Sequence record: OR525701.1
Length of the DNA stretch: 64,000 nt
DNA from: Escherichia phage vB-Eco-KMB38
Reading direction: 5' to 3' (one strand)
Shown: in pieces, positions 2,198 to 40,599 of the stretch
How positions within the stretch are numbered: position 1 is the first letter of the stretch
Layout: each line of letters starts with the position of its first letter
The notes under the pieces: model-generated
The model's database searches: none
Seen by the model: only the letters and a program-made list of their open reading frames with translations
Told to the model about the DNA's origin: nothing
Position numbers and translations under genes: made by a program

Positions 2198-3160
2198 TTA
2201 TTTCCAAGTCAGTTCGCAGGTCAGTTGAAGAAGCATATACATAACATGTAATTCAATATTACTTGCTAATCCATGAAACTTATTATTTTCGCCTGCAATT
2301 TCATAAAGCGAAATAATACTTTTACCTGGTGCAACTTTGTCATAACACTCAGAAACTAATTTATCGATGAACCATGAATAATCAGCGGCATATTTTGGAG
2401 CTAATGCACGAAGCTGTTTGATATCTTTATTTTTCATTGCTTCTATGACATCATCTACCGTGCCACGATCATTGGTTACAATCGACAAAATACCTGCATC
2501 AAGAACACCTTTAGACGAGTACTGGTCTAATTGACCAATTGTACGACGAAAGTCTGGGAAGTTCTTTTTAACCAGAGCTGCAACAACTTTCATATCAGCG
2601 ATTTCGATATTTTCGTTCTTACAGATTTCAACCATACGATGAATCATTTTCTTCATCATCGATATTTTATCTTCTTCGGTTGGACGTCCGAATTCGATAA
2701 CTCGACAACGACTACGTAACGGTTCGATAATTCCATCGATGTTGTTGGCAGTAATAATAATAGAACAGTTACTAGAGAATTCTTCCATGAATGTACGAAG
2801 GTGACGTTGTGATTCAGCGAGGCCACTACGGTCAAATTCATCAATAACAATAACTTTAGGCTTGCCTTCCATTGAGACTGAACGAGCGAATGCAGTTAAT
2901 GGACCACGCACAAAATCAATCTTACAATCAGAACCGTTGACGAACATCATTTCGGCATTGATATCATTACATAATGCTTTTGCTACGGTTGTTTTACCGG
3001 TACCAGGAGATGGAGAGTGTAAAATAATATGAGGAAGTTTTCCTTTAGATACTAAAGACTTGAATGTTTCATGGTCATACGCAGGCAGAATACATTCGTC
3101 AATGGAAGAAGGACGATATTTCTGTTCTAGAATGTGTTCTTTGGAATTGATAGTAATCAT
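2198..3160 (-). CDS. 44: clamp loader large subunit gp44 (AAA+ ATPase)
   Basis: 320 aa with Walker [11 protein letters not shown] and Walker B VIVIDEFD; T4 gene order. Confidence 0.9.
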
Positions 3161-4636: not shown

Positions 4637-6325
4637 TTATGAAACAGTCATCACAGTAAATCGTCCAACTTTGCTCATTTGAAGATGTTGTCCATAAGCT
4701 TGTGGGTCATGGTCTCTGTGACTAATTATAAACACGTTTGCATCGGTTAGAGAGTTAAGAATTGTTGAAATAGCTTTAATACCTTCAGAATCAGTCGCGG
4801 AATCCATGACTTCGTCCATAATTAATGTATTGATTCTAACACCAGAGACCTTTTCAGCAATATCTCGCCATGTAAACAACAATGCGATATCGATACGTGC
4901 CTTTTCACCTTGACTAAATGAAGCATAACTGAACTCTTCACGGCCACGTGATTTTATAGATTCATTGAATTCTTCGTCAATAGAAAACACGTAATCAGCT
5001 TCCATGATTTTAAGATAATGGTTAATCTGCTTGTTGAACAGAGGCACATATTTTTTAATGATAGCACCTTTAATACCAGAATCTTTTAACATATCTGTGA
5101 TAATACCACGATGGTATTTTTCAAGAACGATATCCGATTTTGTTTTAATGATTTTATCAAGTTCTTTTTGAAGCAAAGCTATCTCATCGGCATGGTCGAT
5201 AAATTCCGCCGAGGCTTGTTCTATTGCAGCTTTAACTTTCTTAGCTTTATCAATAGTGGCAATCATTGCTTGTTTCTTGGTGCGAATATCAGATGCAAGG
5301 TCCTGCTTAGTCTTAACATTAGCTCTATATTCGTCCACTAGGACACTCAGATTATCTCTGTGGCAGGTAAGTTGCTCGAATGAGTGATTACATTCATGAA
5401 GCTTATCGGTAATCTTAGAGACAATAGGATCACCCTGGTGCAACTGTGATGCGCAAGTAGGACATGTACCGCCATCATGATACATCTTAATAACTTTGTT
5501 GTATGAGTCAATTTTAGATTTAATCAAGAATGCTTCTTGTCCTATCTTGTTGAATGCCTCAGTAGGGTCTTCATCAAGAACGATATTAAGTAGTCGCTCA
5601 TTAGCTTCTTCGATCTCTGCTTTTAATGAACGAGCTTCTTTGGCTAGGTCGTCATACATATTCTGTAGACGCGCTACATTATCACCAGATAATTTCTTTT
5701 GACGTTCGATATTTTCGTTATAAATCTTAATTTGTTGGATAATACCATCTTTCTTGGCATCGAGAACTTGTCCCTGGGAATTAAGTTCTCGAACTTGAGA
5801 CTTATTGATTTTATCCATTTCAGCGAGTGTGCCAACTTCTAAAAGGTCTTCGACAAGTTTTCTACGAGCAGGGGTGCTAAGAGCCATGAAAGGGGTATAC
5901 CCTGCCGTCCCAAGCACAACGATTTGTTTAAAAGACGCGTATGACATTCCGATGCTACGTTCAAATTCTTCTTGGAAGTCACGACTGCTGGCAGATTCAT
6001 CGAGACGAACACCGTCAACGGAGATTTCGAAAATATTGGGCTTTTGGCCGCGTCTAATGAAGTATTTTTTATCATCGAATTCCATCCAAAGCTCAACTAA
6101 GAGCTCTTTCTTGTTCGTGCTATTAATGATTTGTCCTTTCTTAACATCACGAAATGGTTTACCGAAAAGTCCGAAAGTAATGGCTTCTAACATCGTAGAT
6201 TTACCACCGCCATTTTTACCGGTGATTAAGGTCTTTTGGACTTTATCTAATTGGATATCGATAGGATTCCCACCTACCGACATGATGTTTTGATAACGAA
6301 CACGATTTAATTTAAATGATTTCAT
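4637..6325 (-). CDS. 46: recombination endonuclease subunit gp46 (Rad50/SbcC-like ATPase)
   Basis: 562 aa, Walker A GKNGGGKST, long coiled-coil middle, CPTC zinc hook, C-terminal signature and D-loop region. Confidence 0.9.
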   Translation of the reverse strand: MKSFKLNRVRYQNIMSVGGNPIDIQLDKVQKTLITGKNGGGKSTMLEAITFGLFGKPFRDVKKGQIINSTNKKELLVELWMEFDDKKYFIRRGQKPNIFEISVDGVRLDESASSRDFQEEFERSIGMSYASFKQIVVLGTAGYTPFMALSTPARRKLVEDLLEVGTLAEMDKINKSQVRELNSQGQVLDAKKDGIIQQIKIYNENIERQKKLSGDNVARLQNMYDDLAKEARSLKAEIEEANERLLNIVLDEDPTEAFNKIGQEAFLIKSKIDSYNKVIKMYHDGGTCPTCASQLHQGDPIVSKITDKLHECNHSFEQLTCHRDNLSVLVDEYRANVKTKQDLASDIRTKKQAMIATIDKAKKVKAAIEQASAEFIDHADEIALLQKELDKIIKTKSDIVLEKYHRGIITDMLKDSGIKGAIIKKYVPLFNKQINHYLKIMEADYVFSIDEEFNESIKSRGREEFSYASFSQGEKARIDIALLFTWRDIAEKVSGVRINTLIMDEVMDSATDSEGIKAISTILNSLTDANVFIISHRDHDPQAYGQHLQMSKVGRFTVMTVS

Positions 6326-33764: not shown

Positions 33765-34046
33765 CTATTTTTCTGAAGCGCCTGAAATATATTTTTCAAG
33801 ACGTTGTTTCATCAGCGAGCCGTTCTTAGCGATTTCTTCCGGTTTATCGCACATACGCAACAAGGCTTCAAGCTTAACGATATCACTGGTGCGCTCAAAT
33901 TTGCGAGTATCTATCTTACTAGCAAGTTCAGAAATACGTGCTAATAGACTTTCAGCTTCAACCAAAGCTGCACCTAGCTTAGTTGCAAATGTGTCAGTAG
34001 CTTCGTTAAGAATAGATTCTGATAAAAATTCACTATATGTTTTCAT
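33765..34046 (-). CDS. internal protein-like ([13 protein letters not shown])
   Basis: Start set at the MKTYSEFL Met; helical body. Confidence 0.6.
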
Positions 34047-34531
34047 ATATACGCTTTCCAAGTTCCTGTTTTAAATGTTGATATTACGCGTTTCGCGCGA
34101 TTGGGTGTCTGACGATACCATTTAGATTGGGCTAGATTTACTGCCGCTTCGTCCCAACGTTTCTGTTGAAGCATACGAAGAGAATTAGTAAAACCGGCGA
34201 CGCCTGCTACACCCATTTGGAAGACCATATTGACCAATGCACAACGACGAACCGCATCTAAAGAATCGTATACCGGTTTAAGTTTAGCATTACCCAAGAT
34301 TCCGCGAACGGCTTTATCAACGTCTTCATTAAATAGCTTTTCAGCCTCATCAAGGGTAATTGGACCGTTGCATTTACGGCCGATCATTCTGTCAAGTTCA
34401 GCTTTAGCTACGGCTAAAGATGGGTTCTTTGTTACTAAATGGCCTATGCCAATCGTCCAAAAGCCTTCAGTGTCTTTGTATAAAGTCAGTCTAAGACCTT
34501 CGTCATTACGAAGCATTTCAAATATATTCAT
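34043..34531 (-). CDS. e: lysozyme (endolysin) e
   Basis: [32 protein letters not shown]..., close to T4 lysozyme; ggaggtatt SD. Confidence 0.9.
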
Positions 34532-34565: not shown

Positions 34566-35024
34566 TTATAGGAGGGTAGTGAGCACCTTATATAATGATT
34601 TGCCCATTACATATTCCCATTGAGAAGGTTTAATTAAAGCGAATGCATCAAATTCAGGAATCTGACGTCCGTCCGGGAATGTATGATAGGAATTACAAAC
34701 ACTATTTCTGAATTGCTCGTGCTCTACAGGGATGGTATATAGGAACAGGTGAATATTCTTATTGTCTGAGTAATGATGTTCACCTAGGTCTTTCAGGAAG
34801 GCAGGGTCATATTGTGTAAACCCAGTTTCTTCTTCGCATTCACGAATAGCGGCTTCGATAGGAGATTCGCCGGGCTCGACACGACCTTTAGGAATATCCC
34901 ACCGATGAGCTAAAGAACCTTTAGGACGAGAACCAGTTACACGCCCCATGAATAATTCTTTATCTTCGGTAAGGAAAATAATACCAGCTGATAGTTCTTT
35001 CACTTTATTTTTCTTACTCATCAT
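34566..35024 (-). CDS. nudE: Nudix hydrolase NudE
   Basis: Nudix box GRVEPGESPIEAAIRECEEETG; start at ATG overlapping upstream stop (ATGA). Confidence 0.75.
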   Translation of the reverse strand: MMSKKNKVKELSAGIIFLTEDKELFMGRVTGSRPKGSLAHRWDIPKGRVEPGESPIEAAIRECEEETGFTQYDPAFLKDLGEHHYSDNKNIHLFLYTIPVEHEQFRNSVCNSYHTFPDGRQIPEFDAFALIKPSQWEYVMGKSLYKVLTTLL

Positions 35025-35512
35025 CTCAAATTCCTGCATTCAGTAATAAAACGTTCAACTTCATTATTCTTGGCCTTTATCTTGGCTTTATGTTCTTGTA
35101 AACTACTTTTAATAAGATTAATAATGATGGCGGCGGTACCGCCGCCAATGATGCCACCAACACCACTTATGATACTAGATGCTAATAAGATAGCAATAAT
35201 ATCAACAAAACCGAAAGAACTCACCTTAGTACTGAAAAACCATATAGACGGTGCAAATATAATCCATCCTGTTATCCATTGACACTTATTGAAAAACTTT
35301 TCAAGCTCAGCTTGAGTTGTTCGTATTACTTCATCGATAGGTTGATATCCATTAATGTATCTGTTCACGATAATACCTGCTGGCTGGTCGATTTTAAATG
35401 CTTGACAATGGCGTTTCACTAAGTATGATGGACATCCTGTCCAATCTATAGAATAATATGAAATACCTTCGTCGCCATCGTCCATGTTTGTCCAGTGAAT
35501 TTTATGTATCAT
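35021..35512 (-). CDS. hypothetical membrane protein, C-terminal FITECR motif
   Basis: 163 aa, glycine-rich TM segment, ends ERFITECRNLR. Confidence 0.5.
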   Translation of the reverse strand: MIHKIHWTNMDDGDEGISYYSIDWTGCPSYLVKRHCQAFKIDQPAGIIVNRYINGYQPIDEVIRTTQAELEKFFNKCQWITGWIIFAPSIWFFSTKVSSFGFVDIIAILLASSIISGVGGIIGGGTAAIIINLIKSSLQEHKAKIKAKNNEVERFITECRNLR

Positions 35513-36198
35513 TACCAGCCTTCCATAGGGAATTCCAGATAAACTTGGGCGTTGACACGAATTTCATTGGTAATCTTTTTAACTCGGTCTGTATTACGAG
35601 ATACACGTCCGAACCAACGCCATCCATTACTAATTGCACGAGAACCAGTGTGCCATGTTTGCCAATCAAACTGAAGAAGAGTACGATCTGGAGCTTCCCA
35701 TTTCTCTAGTTCGCCTTTTTCGATTTTTTCGAGGACTTCTTTGTGCCACTGGCGATAGATAAGTTCGCCATCAGGAATCTGACTGAACTCTGCAGTTCCT
35801 GTTGCAAAATGAGTAGGACACACATCAGCGTTAACAAGACCAAGAATATGTTCAGAATGGTAACGAGGGTTGTCATAATCAGGTTGTCCTGCAGTAATAA
35901 AGTGTTGACCTACCGGAATATCAGGGCGTGGTACATCGTCATGGTGATAACCTGGGATAGCAGGGTACCAACCAGGCATCAGCATGTGGACTCGTGAATC
36001 AAATACAACCTGGTCGGTGTTCCAATCATCAGGCAAGTTCATGATGAAGCTGCGAGTAATAGGACCGCCGTTATTATAAGCAAATTCTAAACTACAGTTA
36101 AAGAACATAGGCTCGTTCTTGATTTTATCATTAGAAATACCGCCGGCAAAACCACCTACTGCACGAGCTTGACTATTAAACACTTTAGAACTATTCAT
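35512..36198 (-). CDS. hypothetical protein
   Basis: 228 aa ORF, W/H-rich. Confidence 0.5.
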   Translation of the reverse strand: MNSSKVFNSQARAVGGFAGGISNDKIKNEPMFFNCSLEFAYNNGGPITRSFIMNLPDDWNTDQVVFDSRVHMLMPGWYPAIPGYHHDDVPRPDIPVGQHFITAGQPDYDNPRYHSEHILGLVNADVCPTHFATGTAEFSQIPDGELIYRQWHKEVLEKIEKGELEKWEAPDRTLLQFDWQTWHTGSRAISNGWRWFGRVSRNTDRVKKITNEIRVNAQVYLEFPMEGW

Positions 36199-36199
36199 A

Positions 36200-36505
36200 T
36201 TATTTTCCTCGACATTCTTTAATGAAATTTTCTAGATTGGTAGATTCAATAGCTTTTTTACGAGCTTCTGCGTGTTCTTCTTCAGACAATTTACGTTTAT
36301 AATTGACCCAGACATTATGGTCGAAACCAGTCGTGGCATATAATATCAATGCTCCAACGAATAGCAAAAACGGCGATAAGAATACAAAACCAGGAACACC
36401 ATCCATATCGTAAGCCTTTTGTAATACTGCAACAGAAAGAGCTACGTAAAAAGGTGATGCAAGTATTGTTAAAAGACCAATTCGGTTGGTTTCTGTTAAT
36501 TTCAT
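36200..36505 (-). CDS. hypothetical membrane protein, C-terminal FIKECR motif
   Basis: 101 aa, two TM helices, ends LENFIKECRGK. Confidence 0.5.
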   Translation of the reverse strand: MKLTETNRIGLLTILASPFYVALSVAVLQKAYDMDGVPGFVFLSPFLLFVGALILYATTGFDHNVWVNYKRKLSEEEHAEARKKAIESTNLENFIKECRGK

Positions 36506-36531
36506 AATATTCTCCTCAAGTTGATAGGACT

Positions 36532-36561
36532 ACTATAACATAGTCCTATAATTGTGTAAAC
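36532..36561 (-). promoter_or_regulatory. sigma70-type early promoter with inverted repeat around -10
   Basis: GTTTAC-N18-TATAGT; arms ataggacta/tagtcctat flank the -10. Confidence 0.5.
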
Positions 36562-36573
36562 AGTTTTGTGAAG

Positions 36574-37530
36574 TTATTTGAAAGGTTTTACCATATGGAA
36601 ATTTTGTTTGAAACGTTTGACGTAATCGTCATGTCCTAAGCGTTGGTACATACTTACAACTTTGCTGTAGTTTTCCCAGGCGTATTCACGGAACCAACCG
36701 GAGGTGATGCTTGTGCAAACTTTTTCTAATGCCATCATGAAACTGGCTTCAGAGTTAATTTCAAAGTTATTAGGAATCTGAGAACGTTCTAATGCTAGTA
36801 CACATGATTCTTCATATACACCGGCCAATTTGACCATTTCTGGTAACGATTCGAACTTCTCGCGTGAGGTCATGACTTCAGAACCATCTTTCATGTAAAA
36901 TGTATAAGCCGGACGGTCTGTTAGTGCAATGGCTTCGTGAATAGTATCATGGTCATATGTGTAGATGTCATCTTTAAAGAATGCGCTTTTAGAAGTGTCA
37001 AGAATCGGGTGAGCATAGTTCAAGGTTTCTTTCTGGCGTTTCAGCATAATTTCAGTAAGTTCATCGTTCAGTGTAACACCTTTACCACGAAGATACTGGA
37101 TATGGTTCATAGTCTTTAAAAAGAATGGATTATTTTTCTTGAAACGATGAGACATTTTAATTGCAAGACATATCTCAGGAGTTGCCCAGTAAAACCCGGT
37201 CAAACGATCTTTAGTCAAATTTTTCTTGGCGTATTTTAAAAGGTCATAAGAAGACGTGAAATCTTCAGGAGTGAGTTCACCGACTAATTCACGAACATTA
37301 GTGATTGCCGGAACAATATATGCTTCAAAATGAGTTTCGCGTCCATTATGGAAGCATTTGAAAACTTGGACATCAGGGTTATCTTGGTGAACATATACAC
37401 CCATCATTTGATTTTTGAATGCATTCCAAGAACCTTGGTCCGCAATAAAGTCCCAATCGCTATTTTTGATAGCGCTAGAATCAATAAGACCATGATAGTG
37501 AAGTGCACGAGAACCAATAACTAACATCAT
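36574..37530 (-). CDS. hypothetical protein, possible nucleotidyltransferase fold
   Basis: N-terminal VIGSRALHYHGLIDSSAIKNSDWDF resembles a G-S...D-x-D NTase core; weak. Confidence 0.5.
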   Translation of the reverse strand: MMLVIGSRALHYHGLIDSSAIKNSDWDFIADQGSWNAFKNQMMGVYVHQDNPDVQVFKCFHNGRETHFEAYIVPAITNVRELVGELTPEDFTSSYDLLKYAKKNLTKDRLTGFYWATPEICLAIKMSHRFKKNNPFFLKTMNHIQYLRGKGVTLNDELTEIMLKRQKETLNYAHPILDTSKSAFFKDDIYTYDHDTIHEAIALTDRPAYTFYMKDGSEVMTSREKFESLPEMVKLAGVYEESCVLALERSQIPNNFEINSEASFMMALEKVCTSITSGWFREYAWENYSKVVSMYQRLGHDDYVKRFKQNFHMVKPFK

Positions 37531-37558
37531 AATATTTTCCTCGGATTAATTCATCAAC

Positions 37559-37810
37559 TTAAATTTCACGACATGCGATATTATATTCATCCCATAGGTC
37601 ATCATGTGAAGCCTCTACCAATGGAACGATTGTACCGTTTATGTCTTCATTATAAGGGCAAATTGTACAGTGCGCATCTTCGAATCGGATGCCTTTGTGT
37701 TCAGATTTTTTATAACGCATATCGAATAACTTTGCAAACTTTTCACGAGTAATAGTTTTAGCAACTACTTCGGTTCCAATACTTTCGTAATAAATCATTG
37801 TGGACTCCAT
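37559..37810 (-). CDS. hypothetical protein
   Basis: 83 aa ORF. Confidence 0.45.
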   Translation of the reverse strand: MESTMIYYESIGTEVVAKTITREKFAKLFDMRYKKSEHKGIRFEDAHCTICPYNEDINGTIVPLVEASHDDLWDEYNIACREI

Positions 37811-37826
37811 TTAATTTGATAGGACT

Positions 37827-37856
37827 ACTATAACATAGCCCTATCTTGTTGTAAAC
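37827..37856 (-). promoter_or_regulatory. sigma70-type early promoter with inverted repeat
   Basis: GTTTAC-N18-TATAGT-agtcctatc; spacer atagggcta pairs with downstream tagtcctat. Confidence 0.45.
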
Positions 37857-37860
37857 TGTT

Positions 37861-38058
37861 TTAGCAAGAATAACTAGACGATACCCAGCCTTGAACAGTA
37901 ATGCTATTATTAGATAATGAGATTGCGTTCTGGAGATTCAGACCTGCGTTATCTTCAATCCATAATGTAACTTCTTCGCGTTCTTCTGTTGCAATTTGGA
38001 ACAGGTTTTCCAGGGCAGCTACTGCCGTACGTACAGCACAATCTAATTCACGAGACAT
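37861..38058 (-). CDS. hypothetical protein, family ending W-V-S-S-S-x-x-C (member 1)
   Basis: 65 aa, ends GWVSSSYSC. Confidence 0.5.
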   Translation of the reverse strand: MSRELDCAVRTAVAALENLFQIATEEREEVTLWIEDNAGLNLQNAISLSNNSITVQGWVSSSYSC

Positions 38059-38067
38059 ATGGTTTCC

Positions 38068-38340
38068 TTAGCAAGTGTGAGAAGATGCGATCCAACCACC
38101 AGTTTCGAGGCTCAGGTTGTAGTCGTATTGGTAAACGTCAGCCCATTCAGCATAGCCGTTTTTTGTACAACGTTCAAGATCGGCTTTAAGCTGTCCGGGT
38201 GAATGATATGTTCCACCCATACCATAAGCTGGATACAAGTCGAATGTTGTGTTTTGTTTATCAGCAATTTCTTTGGCAGCCTCAATAGCTGCATAGATTT
38301 TTGCTACAGCTTCAGCCAGTTCGGTTTGTTCTTTAGACAT
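38068..38340 (-). CDS. hypothetical protein, same family (member 2)
   Basis: 90 aa, ends GWIASSHTC; internal GMGGTYHSPG. Confidence 0.5.
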   Translation of the reverse strand: MSKEQTELAEAVAKIYAAIEAAKEIADKQNTTFDLYPAYGMGGTYHSPGQLKADLERCTKNGYAEWADVYQYDYNLSLETGGWIASSHTC

Positions 38341-38349
38341 AATGATTCC

Positions 38350-38655
38350 TTAGCACAACGCAGAAGACGAAACCCAAGCACCTTCAGTAATAACGTAACC
38401 ATTACCTTCACGCTTAACATCGCCACCATTATTTTCAATTTCATCTTTCATCCACTGGGATACGATTTCACCCTTAGGATAATAAGTACGACCGCTACCA
38501 TAATCACCTACAGAAAATGATACAGAATATTGGTCTGCGATCTTTGTTGCTTCTTCTTCGATACGTTCAGCTTGATTCAGAAGTTTATAAATTGCATCTG
38601 AAGCGGATTTGGCATCATTAAACTCTGGTACTTTAATTTCAATAATCTTACTCAT
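38350..38655 (-). CDS. hypothetical protein, same family (member 3)
   Basis: 101 aa, ends AWVSSSALC; internal YGSGRTYYPKG. Confidence 0.5.
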   Translation of the reverse strand: MSKIIEIKVPEFNDAKSASDAIYKLLNQAERIEEEATKIADQYSVSFSVGDYGSGRTYYPKGEIVSQWMKDEIENNGGDVKREGNGYVITEGAWVSSSALC

Positions 38656-39011
38656 TTTCTACATTCCTTAATAAAGTTTTCTATTGTTTCATTTTCACGT
38701 CTAGCTAGGAGTTCATTATAACTAATCATTTGAGAAGCGTAAACCTTTTTATTTTTCTTGTTATGGTTTATAAAATCGTAGTAAAAATAGACTACAGTAC
38801 AAAAGGATGCGATGGATGCAAAGGCTTGGGTATACCGTAAGTCCTGCCATTGGTCTGTGAATCCACCAGTGTTCCCTATAAATCCTAACACAACGCCGTC
38901 AATAAGAAATCCAACTAATCCAAAGGCAAATCCCATGCCAATACTCATAATAAAAATTAGAATGTTCTCACCAAGAGAAGGCCATACGGTTAAGAGTTGA
39001 GGTTTTTGCAT
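38652..39011 (-). CDS. hypothetical membrane protein, C-terminal FIKECR motif
   Basis: 119 aa, two TM helices, ends IENFIKECRK. Confidence 0.5.
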   Translation of the reverse strand: MQKPQLLTVWPSLGENILIFIMSIGMGFAFGLVGFLIDGVVLGFIGNTGGFTDQWQDLRYTQAFASIASFCTVVYFYYDFINHNKKNKKVYASQMISYNELLARRENETIENFIKECRK

Positions 39012-39385
39012 CTTATTTCCTTAACGAATTCCATAGCTTCTTCATATTCATACTTTTTAACAGCTTCATCATACTGAGCTTGGGCTTTTGCGCACTGAAC
39101 TTTCCACTCGCGAACTCGAGCTCTGTGATGACGGCCTTGGTGCCAATATCCTGCCCAATTAATAGGCATTAATAAAAACGGTACAATAAGTGGTGCGACG
39201 AACATTAATGAAAACGCTGCATCAGACGATATAACTTTATTGGAATCTAAAATAGCTCCTATAATCATAAAGATTAAAAATGCTAAAGCTAAAATAGGGC
39301 CAAATAGTACTTCGTTTGGGATTAATTTACGTTTGTATTCGTATGCCCATGGCTTAATTGGCATGTACAGGGTTGGCTTTGACAT
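38990..39385 (-). CDS. hypothetical membrane protein, C-terminal FVKEIRCK variant
   Basis: Start set at MSKPTLY ATG inside the upstream ORF end; TM helices. Confidence 0.45.
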   Translation of the reverse strand: MSKPTLYMPIKPWAYEYKRKLIPNEVLFGPILALAFLIFMIIGAILDSNKVISSDAAFSLMFVAPLIVPFLLMPINWAGYWHQGRHHRARVREWKVQCAKAQAQYDEAVKKYEYEEAMEFVKEIRCKNLNS

Positions 39386-39956
39386 ATTCTCTACATTCCA
39401 TAATAAATTGCTCAAGGATTAAATTGTTAGTGAAATTAGGACTAACAACCATAGTTTCATAAAGCGCATCAATAGCACTTAAAGCATCAACTCTTTTAAG
39501 CAAAGGCTTGCCTTCATACATAGTTTCAGAATCGACGATTAACGTAAAGTAATATTTTTTATTATCGACTAGAACTTCTGTGTCGATATAAAACATATTA
39601 GACCTCAGAAGCTTATCTCTAAAACCATAATAATCTTCTGAACGTTCGCTGATATATTCCCATTCAGTGTTTAAACAACAAACAGACCACGTAGGAGCAA
39701 CGAAATCAGTGAATCTAATATCATGGTCTGCAACTAGTTTAGCAATAGCTCCGATATCATGAATCATAATACCTGGGGCTAATAAAGATTTTCTGCTATG
39801 GCTAGCCGTTTTCTCAGTGGTCTCATAAGAAGCTGACCAGTACCATTTACGTCCGGTTGCAACATATCGTAATGAATCAACTAAAGACGTAGGTGGATTT
39901 ACCTTATCTCGGAACTCTTCGAACATCGAGTCAATATCATTATTTTGGTTTCGCAT
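39354..39956 (-). CDS. hypothetical soluble protein with FIMECREY near C-terminus
   Basis: Start at second ATG (MRNQNND) which follows an aaggag SD. Confidence 0.5.
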   Translation of the reverse strand: MRNQNNDIDSMFEEFRDKVNPPTSLVDSLRYVATGRKWYWSASYETTEKTASHSRKSLLAPGIMIHDIGAIAKLVADHDIRFTDFVAPTWSVCCLNTEWEYISERSEDYYGFRDKLLRSNMFYIDTEVLVDNKKYYFTLIVDSETMYEGKPLLKRVDALSAIDALYETMVVSPNFTNNLILEQFIMECREYVKANPVHAN

Positions 39957-39974: not shown

Positions 39975-39997
39975 CAAAAGGAGGACCGGAGTCCTCC
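39975..39997 (-). terminator. intrinsic terminator
   Basis: ggaggac-tccg-gtcctcc hairpin followed by UUUUGG on the minus transcript. Confidence 0.55.
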
Positions 39998-40005
39998 GTA
40001 TTATT

Positions 40006-40599
40006 TTATTTCAAAGAGTTAATATATTCTTGTACATCAGCAGAAGTGGTTTCGACACCGGCTGGAGTACCATTGAACGTTTCAACACGAGTCAGAGTGT
40101 CTTCGATATCAACCTTAGTCAGTGCAGCGATTTCAATTACATCATCGGCCGTAGAGATACCAAGGGCATTGGCTGCTCGAGTTTCACGAATGTATTCGAG
40201 TTTGATTGCCAGATTCTGACGAGCATCATCAAGTTCAACCACCTTACGAGCAATTTCAATTCGCATAGCGGCATACCCGTCGGCTTTTGTATTAAGTTGT
40301 TCGGCAGTTCGACGATACAGAAGACCAAGCTTAGCATGCATGGTAACATCTTGTCCTTCGGCCAAGAGCTTACGAATTTCACGTTCCTTAGAAGCGGCTT
40401 GTTTATTCTTTTCAATAACAAGTTCGCGAATACGTTTTTCTTCATTAATAGATTTAACAGAAGCCGTTTTTAGTTCTTTGATTTGGGTAATCAACTTATC
40501 TGCAGCTGCGTTATACTGTTCTTCGACAGTCAGATTTTTAGCCATAGCAGTACCCAGTTTAGTGCGGATGAATTCAACAAGTTTCTTCAGTGTGTTCAT
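40006..40599 (-). CDS. hypothetical coiled-coil protein
   Basis: Start at MNTLKK ATG with aaagg SD; heptad-like charged helical sequence. Confidence 0.5.

Follow-up and report, generated by a model that had tools for sequence, protein, structure and literature searches.

In bacteriophage T4 the non-homologous proteins gp43, gp33 and gp55 dock onto the gp45 clamp via similar short C-terminal peptides. The ESCRT-III motif MIM1, (D/E)xxLxxRLxxL(K/R), is likewise found at the C-terminus and binds MIT domains. PspC, PspB and LiaI are small inner-membrane proteins in which a cytoplasmic C-terminal domain binds the helical PspA-family protein encoded in the same operon, the partner of the PspC domain being PspA (PMC5596341). 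Here we describe a C-terminal motif, F-[IV]-x-x-C-R, of T-even-type phages. The window analysed, 64,000 nt from Escherichia phage vB-Eco-KMB38 (OR525701.1), represents an RB69-like Mosigvirus, and its motif genes are e.2, RB69ORF133c, e.3, e.4 and e.5.

Five genes of the window and their common ending

The five ORFs, all on the minus strand, were confirmed with the coordinates and C-termini given in the initial annotation and match annotated CDSs of phages AlbertHofmann and RB69. In gene order from e.2 to e.5 they end in ERFITECRNLR, ENFIKECRGK, ENFIKECRK, EFVKEIRCKNLNS and EQFIMECREYVKANPVHAN, each followed by the stop codon. The e.2 homologue (35021-35512, 163 aa), assigned to PHROG 2203 (‘membrane protein’), consists of a soluble N-terminal part, two hydrophobic segments and a putative cytoplasmic tail ending in VERFITECRNLR, with the motif codons at 35033-35050. 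The RB69ORF133c homologue (36200-36505, 101 aa; motif codons 36209-36226; tail LENFIKECRGK) is a two-TM protein whose homologues are confined to Mosigvirus. The e.3 homologue (38652-39011, 119 aa) is a small membrane protein with the tail IENFIKECRK (motif codons 38658-38675). The two-TM e.4 homologue (38990-39385, 131 aa; motif codons 39008-39028) ends in AMEFVKEIRCKNLNS and carries a shifted variant, in which the Cys position is taken by Ile and a Cys follows two residues later. The e.5 homologue (39354-39956, 200 aa; motif codons 39390-39407; tail LEQFIMECREYVKANPVHAN) is soluble. None of the five proteins belongs to a Pfam family at E ≤ 0.01, and they represent five separate PHROGs to which no function is assigned. 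Upstream of e.5, the e.6 homologue (40006-40599, minus strand, 197 aa) has its C-terminal ending encoded at 40009-40035. A G+C-rich stem-loop followed by a T run (39980-39997, minus strand) marks the intergenic junction between e.6 and e.5, at a position where T4 carries GGGGCTTCGGCCCC; the junctions after the motif genes overlap instead.

The core of the motif is Φ(-3)-x-x-[F/W](0)-[I/V](+1)-x-x-C(+4)-R(+5), after which comes a tail that is basic or short. A chance match in an AT-rich genome, which the initial annotation had named as the result that would overturn the motif, is excluded. Translated in six frames, a ~169.5 kb composite genome contained the strict form F[IV]x[ED]CR four times where 0.28 matches were expected, always in these genes and 1-11 residues ahead of the stop. 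With the loose form [FW][IVL]xx[CMVIAL]R, a search of the C-terminal 24 residues in each of 246 non-overlapping ORFs returned exactly these five genes, compared with ~0.62 expected from the internal rate. Among 123 distinct C-termini, position 0 was F in 116 and W in 7, position +1 was I (96), V (21) or L (6), and position +5 was R (109) or K (14). Cys occupied position +4 in 100 of them (81%; background Cys 1.1%). The motif had been proposed as F-I-x-E-C-R; F, I, C and R stand as its core, but E and the K ahead of it do not. The E or K-E residues track the position of the downstream Shine-Dalgarno sequence.

The spacing i, i+3, i+4, i+7 fits one face of a putative amphipathic α-helix. Where Cys is replaced, the substitutes are M, V, I, L or A, which is what a hydrophobic helix face would lead one to expect. 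The strong preference for Cys is not explained by such a simple model and may reflect metal, redox or modification chemistry.

Codon use, overlapping start sites and gene junctions

That conservation acts at the protein level and does not reflect a copied DNA linker was borne out, as F, I/V, C and R are retained in spite of scrambling at the synonymous sites. In the five genes Arg is encoded by AGG, CGA or AGA and Cys by TGC or TGT, as had been claimed, and Phe by TTT or TTC. The codon comparison that had been suggested gave, for ENFIKECR of e.3 and ORF133c, 4 synonymous and 0 nonsynonymous differences across 8 codons. In the wider set of instances TTT and TTC are mixed, Cys is TGT in 53 and TGC in 47, and Arg uses all six codons. 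The motif codons thus vary freely, which shows that selection acts on the protein. In an alignment of the e.5 superfamily from seven genera (17-24% identity) no columns other than M1, N96, F184, C188 and R189 are invariant. We conclude that this C-terminal ending is a genuine short linear motif under selection.

As had also been noticed, the motif codons overlap the ribosome-binding site or the start of the next gene in many cases. In e.3 the K-E codons AAGGAA form the Shine-Dalgarno sequence of the next gene, whose ATG overlaps the e.3 stop (ATGA), and in e.4 the e.3 ATG sits inside the motif codons AGA-TGC. Conceivably, the peptide is a by-product of translation initiation, being simply whatever the A/U-rich enhancer and Shine-Dalgarno sequence of the coupled downstream gene encode. 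This would suit the position of the next ATG, within -1 to +12 nt of the Arg codon in most cases. It would also suit the two variable residues (x3x4), which are KE, KG or EE and spell AAGGAA, AAAGGA or GAGGAA when the ATG is at most 2 nt away. At spacings of 7-12 nt, Arg is AGG, AGA or CGA in 27 of 30 cases, and AGA and AGG make up 68% of the Arg codons in the first 37 instances compared with 19% genome-wide. However, the Shine-Dalgarno sequence is located in x3x4 or in Arg+1, gene by gene, while F, I/V, C and R remain unchanged. The next ATG follows the Arg codon at anything from -7 to more than 30 nt, and the 37 instances that are more than 12 nt away retain the core with ordinary Arg codons (CGT in 17, CGC in 7). 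Moreover, the variants with Cys (TGY), Phe (TTY) and Trp (TGG) have no Shine-Dalgarno rationale, and F, C and R are the sole invariants of the e.5 superfamily beyond M1 and N96. A Shine-Dalgarno-type element is purine-rich, positioned at a fixed ~5-10 nt from the start and conserved as nucleotides, which the motif as a whole is not; only the x3x4 residues and the choice of Arg codon behave in this manner. The initiation region as the sole cause is largely refuted and we regard this explanation as highly improbable. What the overlapping Shine-Dalgarno sequence does shape is which Arg codon is used and which amino acids, frequently K-E, K-G or E-E, fill the two variable positions.

The initial annotation had further considered a module-junction sequence used in cassette shuffling. 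In T4-like phages such shuffling by PeSLs, i.e. nucleotide-conserved intergenic elements made up of a promoter and a terminator-like hairpin, is documented (PMC2839356, PMC4122927). PeSLs and the motif are alike in being short, conserved and repeated where genes meet in the hyperplastic regions of T4-like genomes (PMC2839356, PMC4122927), and by analogy the motif codons could offer microhomology for recombination. The region is indeed mosaic, with ORF139c-ORF132c lying between e.3 and e.2 in RB69-type phages while the two genes adjoin in T4, and gene indels fall exactly at gene junctions. On the other hand, the synonymous sites of the motif are saturated, as in the comparison of e.3 with ORF133c, so that little DNA homology is left for recombination, and the one resolved indel, that of ORF130c, used a GAGATGA repeat at start/stop overlaps and not the motif codons. 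The motif is coding, conserved as amino acids only, and sits where genes overlap, at junctions that have no promoter or hairpin, unlike a PeSL with its intergenic sigma-70 early promoter and stem-loop conserved as DNA. Promoter- and terminator-like sites do occur here, but in intergenic gaps away from the motif junctions (promoter-like sites at 40669-40641, 37855-27 and 36560-32, the hairpin at 39997-39980). A role in recombination was therefore not upheld as the reason for conservation, and we consider it very unlikely.

Carrier proteins, their distribution and descent

The motif recurs in T-even-type phages of enterobacteria and Aeromonas. Orthologues, whose lack of the motif would have counted against it, keep it in T4, Dhakavirus, Gaprivervirus, Kanagawavirus, Roskildevirus, Mosugukvirus, Marfavirus, Aeromonas phages and Pseudotevenvirus. 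In a survey of 37 loci anchored on e.6, 108 strict matches were found in the 722 downstream ORFs and none in the 594 upstream ORFs; the loose form gave 147 and 5 matches, respectively. The gene directly 3′ of e.6 ends in F[IV]xxC[R/K/I] at every examined locus, including those of Aeromonas phages 65, 44RR and CC2-like phages and of the Pseudotevenvirus Margaery, with the exception of Serratia WSPA, the most divergent e.6 locus, where the adjoining gene has the degenerate ending IIHQAR. Members of the e.5 superfamily are always encoded right after e.6, and the order is e.6, then the e.5-type soluble protein, then two to six fast-evolving small two-TM proteins. The motif is thus a marker of an early-gene module that T-even-type phages have conserved.

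The e.5 superfamily supplies soluble carriers of the motif; the others are e.2 and many small two-TM proteins, besides small soluble carriers of the CIP9 gp242 type and IME08 orf118. In most carriers two hydrophobic segments precede a basic juxtamembrane stretch, and 16-41 residues (typically ~35) then lead up to the motif. We read the tails of the two-TM proteins as putatively cytoplasmic and helical. The predicted model of e.5 is poor (pLDDT 51).

With TM segments at this distance ahead of the motif and the next start within about 10 nt of it in most genes, the peptide bears some resemblance to force sensors, and it could act as a nascent-chain arrest peptide in the manner of SecM or MifM, a ribosome pause coupling insertion of the two TM segments to translation of the next gene. 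The motif is nevertheless shared by the soluble carriers of the e.5 superfamily, in which more than 30 nt can separate it from the next start, and it lacks the features (Pro, Trp, RAPP-type) that mark known arrest peptides. We regard this as the least credible of the readings considered here.

Neither do the tails beyond the motif suit a degradation or targeting tag by which a host protease or quality-control system (ClpXP, FtsH or Lon class) would determine when these early proteins are turned over. The position of the motif at or close to the extreme C-terminus, the basic tail after it (K, R, RK, GK) and, by inference, its use on many unrelated early proteins speak for such a tag. However, anything from 0 to about 24 residues follows the motif, while tags that depend on a free C-terminus normally need a fixed end. 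To our knowledge the motif is also unlike the ssrA-like or MuA-like C-motifs. We consider a tag of this kind quite improbable.

The bodies of the five proteins had been described as unrelated. This holds for e.5 and e.2 compared with the small two-TM proteins, but may not hold among the latter, and the four membrane proteins may not be truly unrelated, because weak similarity links them. With the motif trimmed off, BLAST links the e.3, e.4, ORF133c and PM2/EI families weakly (E 1e-4 to 1e-2 in a 39-sequence database), and hhalign gives probabilities of 30-83% among them. In addition, LF82-1 is a rearranged remnant in which only the last ~30 codons of e.3 are left, and P0076 is an e.3/e.4 chimera. 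Judging by these similarities, the two-TM proteins seem to be paralogues that have radiated and diverged, and the sharing of the motif among them may partly be plain common descent. The motif could even be nothing but a relic of that descent, i.e. a C-terminal helix of tandem two-TM paralogues with an intramolecular or homo-oligomeric role and no shared partner, which e.5 and e.2 acquired by 3′-end capture. The shared architecture, the tandem arrays of two to six genes, the weak links and the rearranged remnants all point in this direction. Yet the motif is just as invariant in the soluble e.5 superfamily, the CIP9 gp242 type and IME08 orf118, which are otherwise unlike the two-TM proteins, and a private structural element is not expected to retain four residues across differing folds amid such divergence. 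We judge a pure relic to be unlikely.

The e.6 protein and known docking systems

Of the roles that the initial annotation had suggested for the shared peptide, we favour interaction over a degradation or targeting tag. On balance, we think it probable that the motif forms a helix which serves docking or assembly in the cytoplasm, with one common partner. Such a helix would bring dissimilar proteins together on a single surface of that partner, on the inner side of the cell membrane. As the partner, e.6 would be the most economical choice: it is the conserved protein of the module and has a Vipp1/PspA-like model and an end helix of the same pattern. The modelled protein is all-helical, a long helical hairpin lying between one N-terminal and one C-terminal helix, and the conservation of e.6 (47-99%) is far above that of the carriers. 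In a Foldseek search of the PDB with the AF2 model (pLDDT 75.6; C-terminal helix block 92), the eight best matches were Vipp1/PspA (prob 1.00, E 2e-3 to 3e-2), and archaeal CdvB2 came next. No match was obtained with e.6 against Pfam, including PspA_IM30, even at E ≤ 10, nor with the single sequence against PDB sequences; a profile search found Vipp1 weakly, at E = 1.7 only, with a collinear alignment (6-138 to 6-140). By its model e.6 may be a Vipp1/PspA (ESCRT-III-like) helical hairpin protein, a family whose fold combines an amphipathic helix at the N-terminus, a long α1/α2-3 hairpin and shorter helices at the C-terminus. Its C-terminus, V/I-x-x-Y-[IL]-x-x-L-K-stop (V-x-x-Y-I-x-x-L-K-stop in the window), has the spacing pattern of the motif, but since Y, L and K are used rather than F, C and R, ‘same motif’ means a resemblance of pattern only. 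By its model and its place in the module, e.6 may be the common partner of the motif.

The reading as a docking helix can be compared with the three systems introduced above. The gp45-binding tails are comparable in that one and the same phage encodes several non-homologous proteins with similar endings; they differ in consensus and in the proteins involved, the carriers here being mostly membrane proteins and the hub a candidate only. With MIM1 the motif shares a short C-terminal helix of putative amphipathic character, hydrophobic residues at i, i+4 and i+7, a closing basic residue and the association with a protein that is, by its model, of the ESCRT-III-superfamily type; the tail of e.6 itself fits the MIM1 spacing. 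However, i+3 is Phe or Trp instead of Arg and Cys takes the place of the last Leu, so the motif is not a MIM1 by sequence. It is also found mainly on the partners and not on the ESCRT-III-like protein, and a non-systematic look at these phages made no MIT-domain or Vps4-like protein evident.

Host PspC offers a parallel because it binds PspA via its C-terminal cytoplasmic domain. As in PspC, PspB and LiaI, the phage two-TM proteins have a putative cytoplasmic amphipathic helix and are encoded downstream of a Vipp1/PspA-like gene, the likeness being one of architecture and linkage. The phage carriers show no sequence homology to PspB, PspC or LiaI, in keeping with the empty Pfam searches; they are phage-encoded, there are several different ones per genome, one of them soluble, and they present a sharply defined F-[IV]-x-x-C-R instead of a leucine-zipper-like segment. 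Taken further, these likenesses would suggest that T-even-type phages encode their own ESCRT-III/PspA-like module for remodelling or protecting membranes, with e.6 as the scaffold and the F-[IV]-x-x-C-R helix, borne by adaptors, as its ligand, an idea which is speculative and on present evidence doubtful. If true, rapidly diversifying small membrane adaptors and one soluble factor would decide where or when e.6 acts on the host inner membrane, and the motif helix would be a viral counterpart of MIM or PspC-type docking.

Five neighbouring genes with a common C-terminal motif

Between 35000 and 40000 the window matches Escherichia phage AlbertHofmann (Mosigvirus) at 100% identity and RB69 at ~96%; the annotation of RB69 names the five genes under study: e.2 (35021–35512), RB69ORF133c (ORF133c; 36200–36505), e.3 (38652–39011), e.4 (38990–39385) and e.5 (39354–39956), all on the minus strand. 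Each belongs to its own PHROG family (five in all), and Pfam returned no domain in any of them. The five C-termini were reread from the sequence and agreed letter for letter with the initial annotation, as did the codon differences within the motif; e.4 carries FVKEIRC. Upstream of this region the two genomes are not fully colinear: from the window start (1–1100) to 35000 the coordinate offset between AlbertHofmann (MZ501047.1) and the window shifts by 529 bp, so that at least one indel separates the two.

Chance expectations for the motif were derived from amino-acid frequencies and internal rates. In a composite genome of ~169.5 kb (AlbertHofmann plus the window) a six-frame scan for F[IV]x[ED]CR gave four matches, 4/4 within these genes and 1–11 residues ahead of the stop, against 0.28 expected over the whole six-frame translation from amino-acid frequencies. 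The looser [FW][IVL]xx[CMVIAL]R, applied to the C-terminal 24 residues of each of 246 non-overlapping ORFs, returned exactly the five genes, with 0.62 expected from the internal rate. These counts answer the concern that so short a match might be expected by chance. The segment ENFIKECR, common to e.3 and ORF133c, shows four synonymous and no nonsynonymous differences and is therefore not recently copied DNA, in agreement with the earlier claim that no DNA linker had been copied. The observation of the motif is thus confirmed, and it extends far past the window.

TM-like hydrophobic segments are present in 76 of the 123 proteins that end in the motif (carriers), about two thirds. In a nine-genome panel most carriers are small, with two TM-like segments followed by a basic stretch and then 16–41 residues to the motif. 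By the positive-inside rule, the basic stretch after the TM segments implies a tail that would be cytoplasmic; it is presumably helical. The soluble carriers are members of the e.5 superfamily, IME08 orf118, and small proteins including CIP9 gp242, EI 6634 and PM2 6933. Once the motif had been removed, BLAST and hhalign still joined e.3, e.4, ORF133c and the two-TM proteins of PM2, EI and IT22 by weak links, and likewise e.5 and the e.5-position proteins of other genera; the same methods gave no link between the two-TM carriers and either e.5 or the N-terminal part of e.2. The description of the five bodies as unrelated therefore stands for e.5 and the N-terminal part of e.2 relative to the two-TM proteins, but not among the latter, which their weak links mark as probably one diverged tandem radiation.

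A second C-terminal signature, G-x-W-[VIL]-S-S-S-x-x-C-stop, in which the protein ends on the Cys itself, is interleaved with the motif genes. It closes small soluble paralogues of 65–105 aa (PHROG 899; in the window 38350–38655, 38068–38340 and 37861–38058, minus strand), with endings such as AWVSSSALC, GWIASSHTC and GWVSSSYSC. One to four such genes occur in 32/39 e.6-anchored loci, and they are also found at the compared loci L007, L012, L013, L016, L017 and L018–L058. An end so rich in Ser and Cys might be a site of post-translational modification or of metal binding. The ORF134c homologue (36574–37530, minus strand; 318 aa; DUF7277 and DUF7275, E 9e-28 and 4e-78) is kept beside these genes in several genera. 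The ORF132c homologue (35512–36198, minus strand; 228 aa; PHROG 1843), without a Pfam match, is 75–93% identical in Tevenvirinae and Aeromonas phages and about 30% identical in Gordonia, Mycobacterium and Bacillus phages, with an invariant C-terminus, NAQVYLEFPMEGW; it adjoins an RtcB-like ligase in one Gordonia phage and lies in a different genomic context in Aeromonas phage 44RR. A small ORF (33765–34061, minus strand) has counterparts annotated as internal head or virion proteins in related phages, and its N-terminus resembles the capsid-targeting sequence with which T4 internal head proteins begin.

Occurrence and composition of the motif

The search of other T4-like genomes suggested by the initial annotation showed the motif in T4 and in several further genera. 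T4 e.3 ends in KEFVIDCRKIK and T4 e.4 in KFVKESRCKSQS, and the C-terminal region of T4 e.5 contains EKFVKECREYVK. The annotated product of T4 e.2 (AF158101, 3492–3961, minus strand; 102 aa) ends early, yet the same frame reopens past two in-frame stops and ends in NNFITECRKLK / KKYAQNLNNFITECRKLK just before nudE, matching the arrangement in T2-like phages (162 aa e.2); by comparison with these, the gap of ~30 codons reads correctly in another frame. This leaves T4 e.2 as either a frameshifted pseudogene or a gene with errors in its sequence. In Dhakavirus IME08, Gaprivervirus VR7, Kanagawavirus CIP9, Roskildevirus IT22, Mosugukvirus PM2 and Marfavirus EI the motif closes 3–7 genes of each genome.

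A set anchored on e.6, the gene at the start of the module, comprised 40 IMG/VR loci with 8 kb on each side, 37 of which were analysed for matches in the last 26 residues of ORFs (strict pattern, [FW][IVL]xxCR). Downstream of e.6 there were 108 strict and 147 loose matches among 722 ORFs, and upstream 0 strict and 5 loose among 594, with 3–6 carriers in a typical genome. The first gene after e.6 is motif-ended in all analysed e.6 loci: it carries FIKECR in Aeromonas phage 65, FVDYCRRTASKK at the end in Aeromonas phage 44RR, and the variant FINYCI/FVEYCI in CC2-like phages. A prospective test on two distant e.6 homologues (~35% identity) gave EKFIHSCKKNVLEKYDP in Pseudotevenvirus Margaery and the degenerate IIHQAR, in two paralogues, in Serratia phage WSPA. 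No new carriers were returned when the five C-termini of the window, combined in a profile of 33 residues, were run against 1.84 billion representatives; apart from orthologues the search recovered just an e.3/e.4 chimera and a single Cys-rich repeat protein, a spurious match, and the motif alone is without statistical power for finding new carriers. Literature searches on the function of e.2–e.6 or on phage-encoded PspA gave nothing relevant; as far as these searches on e.2–e.6 and PspA reach, the motif is not known to have been described.

Counts from 123 distinct C-termini, numbered from the aromatic residue as position 0, gave F116 and W7 at this position, I96, V21 and L6 at +1, C100 at +4 (else I, V, M, L or A) and R109 and K14 at +5, with L47, F18, I15, V14 and A12 at −3. 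Position +2 is mostly K and position +3 is E in 47 (else G, Y, N, Q, S, M and others); K, R, G or E follow +5, and the stop usually lies 1–3 residues on. The background frequency of Cys is 1.1%, and its substitutes in the motif are hydrophobic. The spacing of −3, 0, +1 and +4 would put these residues on a single face of an alpha-helix. When the e.5 superfamily was aligned over 7 genera (17–24% identity), no columns but M1, N96, F184, C188 and R189 were invariant, and BLASTP of e.5 against Dhakavirus members aligned just 14 residues around the motif. With e.5 alone, a locus search found only two near-identical loci and a homologue search three close matches; the 7-genus alignment reached 36 proteins. 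The AF2 model of e.5 from this alignment (pLDDT 51) was judged unusable.

Protein constraint, ribosome-binding sites and gene junctions

The motif adjoins the start of the next gene on its upstream side, as would be expected if it were solely a by-product of that gene's translation-initiation region, and instances were therefore grouped by the distance from the motif Arg codon to the next ATG. At ≤2 nt (the CRK-stop class with ATGA overlap) the two variable positions are KE (15), KG (10) or EE (7), encoded AAGGAA, AAAGGA or GAGGAA, which is the Shine-Dalgarno (SD) site of the next gene. At 7–12 nt the SD lies on the Arg and the following codon, and Arg is AGG, AGA or CGA in 27/30. In the 37 instances beyond 12 nt these positions are diverse and Arg is CGT in 17, CGC in 7 and AGA in 8, close to genome-wide usage (CGT 54%, AGA 15%, AGG 4%). 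F, I/V, C and R are nevertheless retained in every distance class, including these 37, which refutes translation initiation as the sole cause and identifies the E, the frequent K and the choice of Arg codon as an SD overlay. Hence, of the F-I-x-E-C-R first described, the core F-[IV]-x-x-C-R belongs to the protein and the E follows the downstream SD. A RegA or MotA box was rejected for want of conservation at the nucleotide level; the gp21 prohead-protease site (I/L-x-E) and an N-terminal capsid-targeting sequence were rejected as well, since the E is variable and the carriers are mostly membrane proteins. The motif is a clean example of an overlapping ribosome-binding site and protein-level selection both moulding the last codons of packed phage genes, and such joint shaping is relevant to recoding and phage engineering.

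Matches to T4-early-like promoters lie 5′ of e.6, ORF135c and ORF133c, and the gap from e.6 to e.5 contains a GC-rich hairpin. These sites are without exception intergenic, whereas the junctions after motif genes overlap, so that the motif is not an intergenic promoter-early stem-loop (PeSL) cassette (PMC2839356, PMC4122927). The window is without RB69 ORF130c (RB69 locus, 2768–3004; window 35021–35045, between e.2 and nudE), and this deletion joins two GAGATGA repeats (SD-ATG-stop overlaps), not motif codons; it amounts to the precise gain or loss of a single-gene cassette at gene boundaries. In LF82-1 only the last ~30 codons of e.3 are left (4990–5090 of its locus), retaining the motif together with the SD and ATG of the downstream gene, and P0076, a metagenomic protein of 60 aa, is chimeric, joining the N-terminus of e.3 with a segment from the e.3 tail and the C-terminus of e.4. 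Remnants such as that of LF82-1 suggest a way in which new gene bodies might capture 3′ ends. Because synonymous sites are saturated, recombination, judged from the codons, cannot be what keeps the peptide; together with the position of the ORF130c indel at GAGATGA repeats, this speaks against the proposed role of the motif as a junction for cassette shuffling.

e.6 and a possible docking module

The e.6 gene (40006–40599, minus strand) is conserved well above the carriers, with 47–99% identity across genera and 1101 phage records, and is a candidate partner. Its C-terminus, [VI]-x-x-Y-[IL]-x-x-L-K-stop, has the spacing pattern of the motif. In the AF2 model of e.6 (23 sequences; pLDDT 75.6) a helix at the N-terminus is joined by a hairpin with arms of 56 and 59 residues and by a C-terminal helix predicted with confidence. 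When submitted to Foldseek against the PDB, the model returned Vipp1/PspA at ranks 1–8 (prob 1.00, E 2e-3 to 3e-2), with archaeal CdvB2 next. Sequence methods, including PDB searches by sequence and by profile, gave nothing significant, and a thin alignment of e.6, compared by hhalign with an approximate sequence of E. coli PspA, gave no match. One GenBank record of Klebsiella phage EI labels the e.6 protein ‘shock protein A’. With moderate confidence, e.6 is probably PspA/Vipp1-like; possibly it is a phage-encoded protein of the ESCRT-III/PspA superfamily.

On the best-supported reading, the motif would be a C-terminal helix for docking or assembly, kept at the protein level and common to a conserved e.6-e.5-(small membrane protein)n module. 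Carriers would dock or assemble via this common helix, with the SD overlay acting on its variable positions. e.6 is the leading candidate for the docking partner, if still a rather unlikely one. The motif is the first handle joining e.2–e.6, genes that over a thousand sequenced T4-like phages conserve, into one functional module, and turns ‘hypothetical proteins’ into a testable hypothesis of a single partner surface with multiple adaptors. Its peptide is a ready bait for pull-downs and a sequence signature for further members in new phage genomes. If e.6 is indeed PspA/Vipp1-like, the module would contain a phage-encoded ESCRT-III superfamily member together with adaptors of its own. The host protein PspC, whose cytoplasmic C-terminal domain binds PspA (PMC5596341), is the closest functional analogy for small membrane proteins that have a putatively cytoplasmic C-terminal helix and are encoded beside a PspA-like gene.
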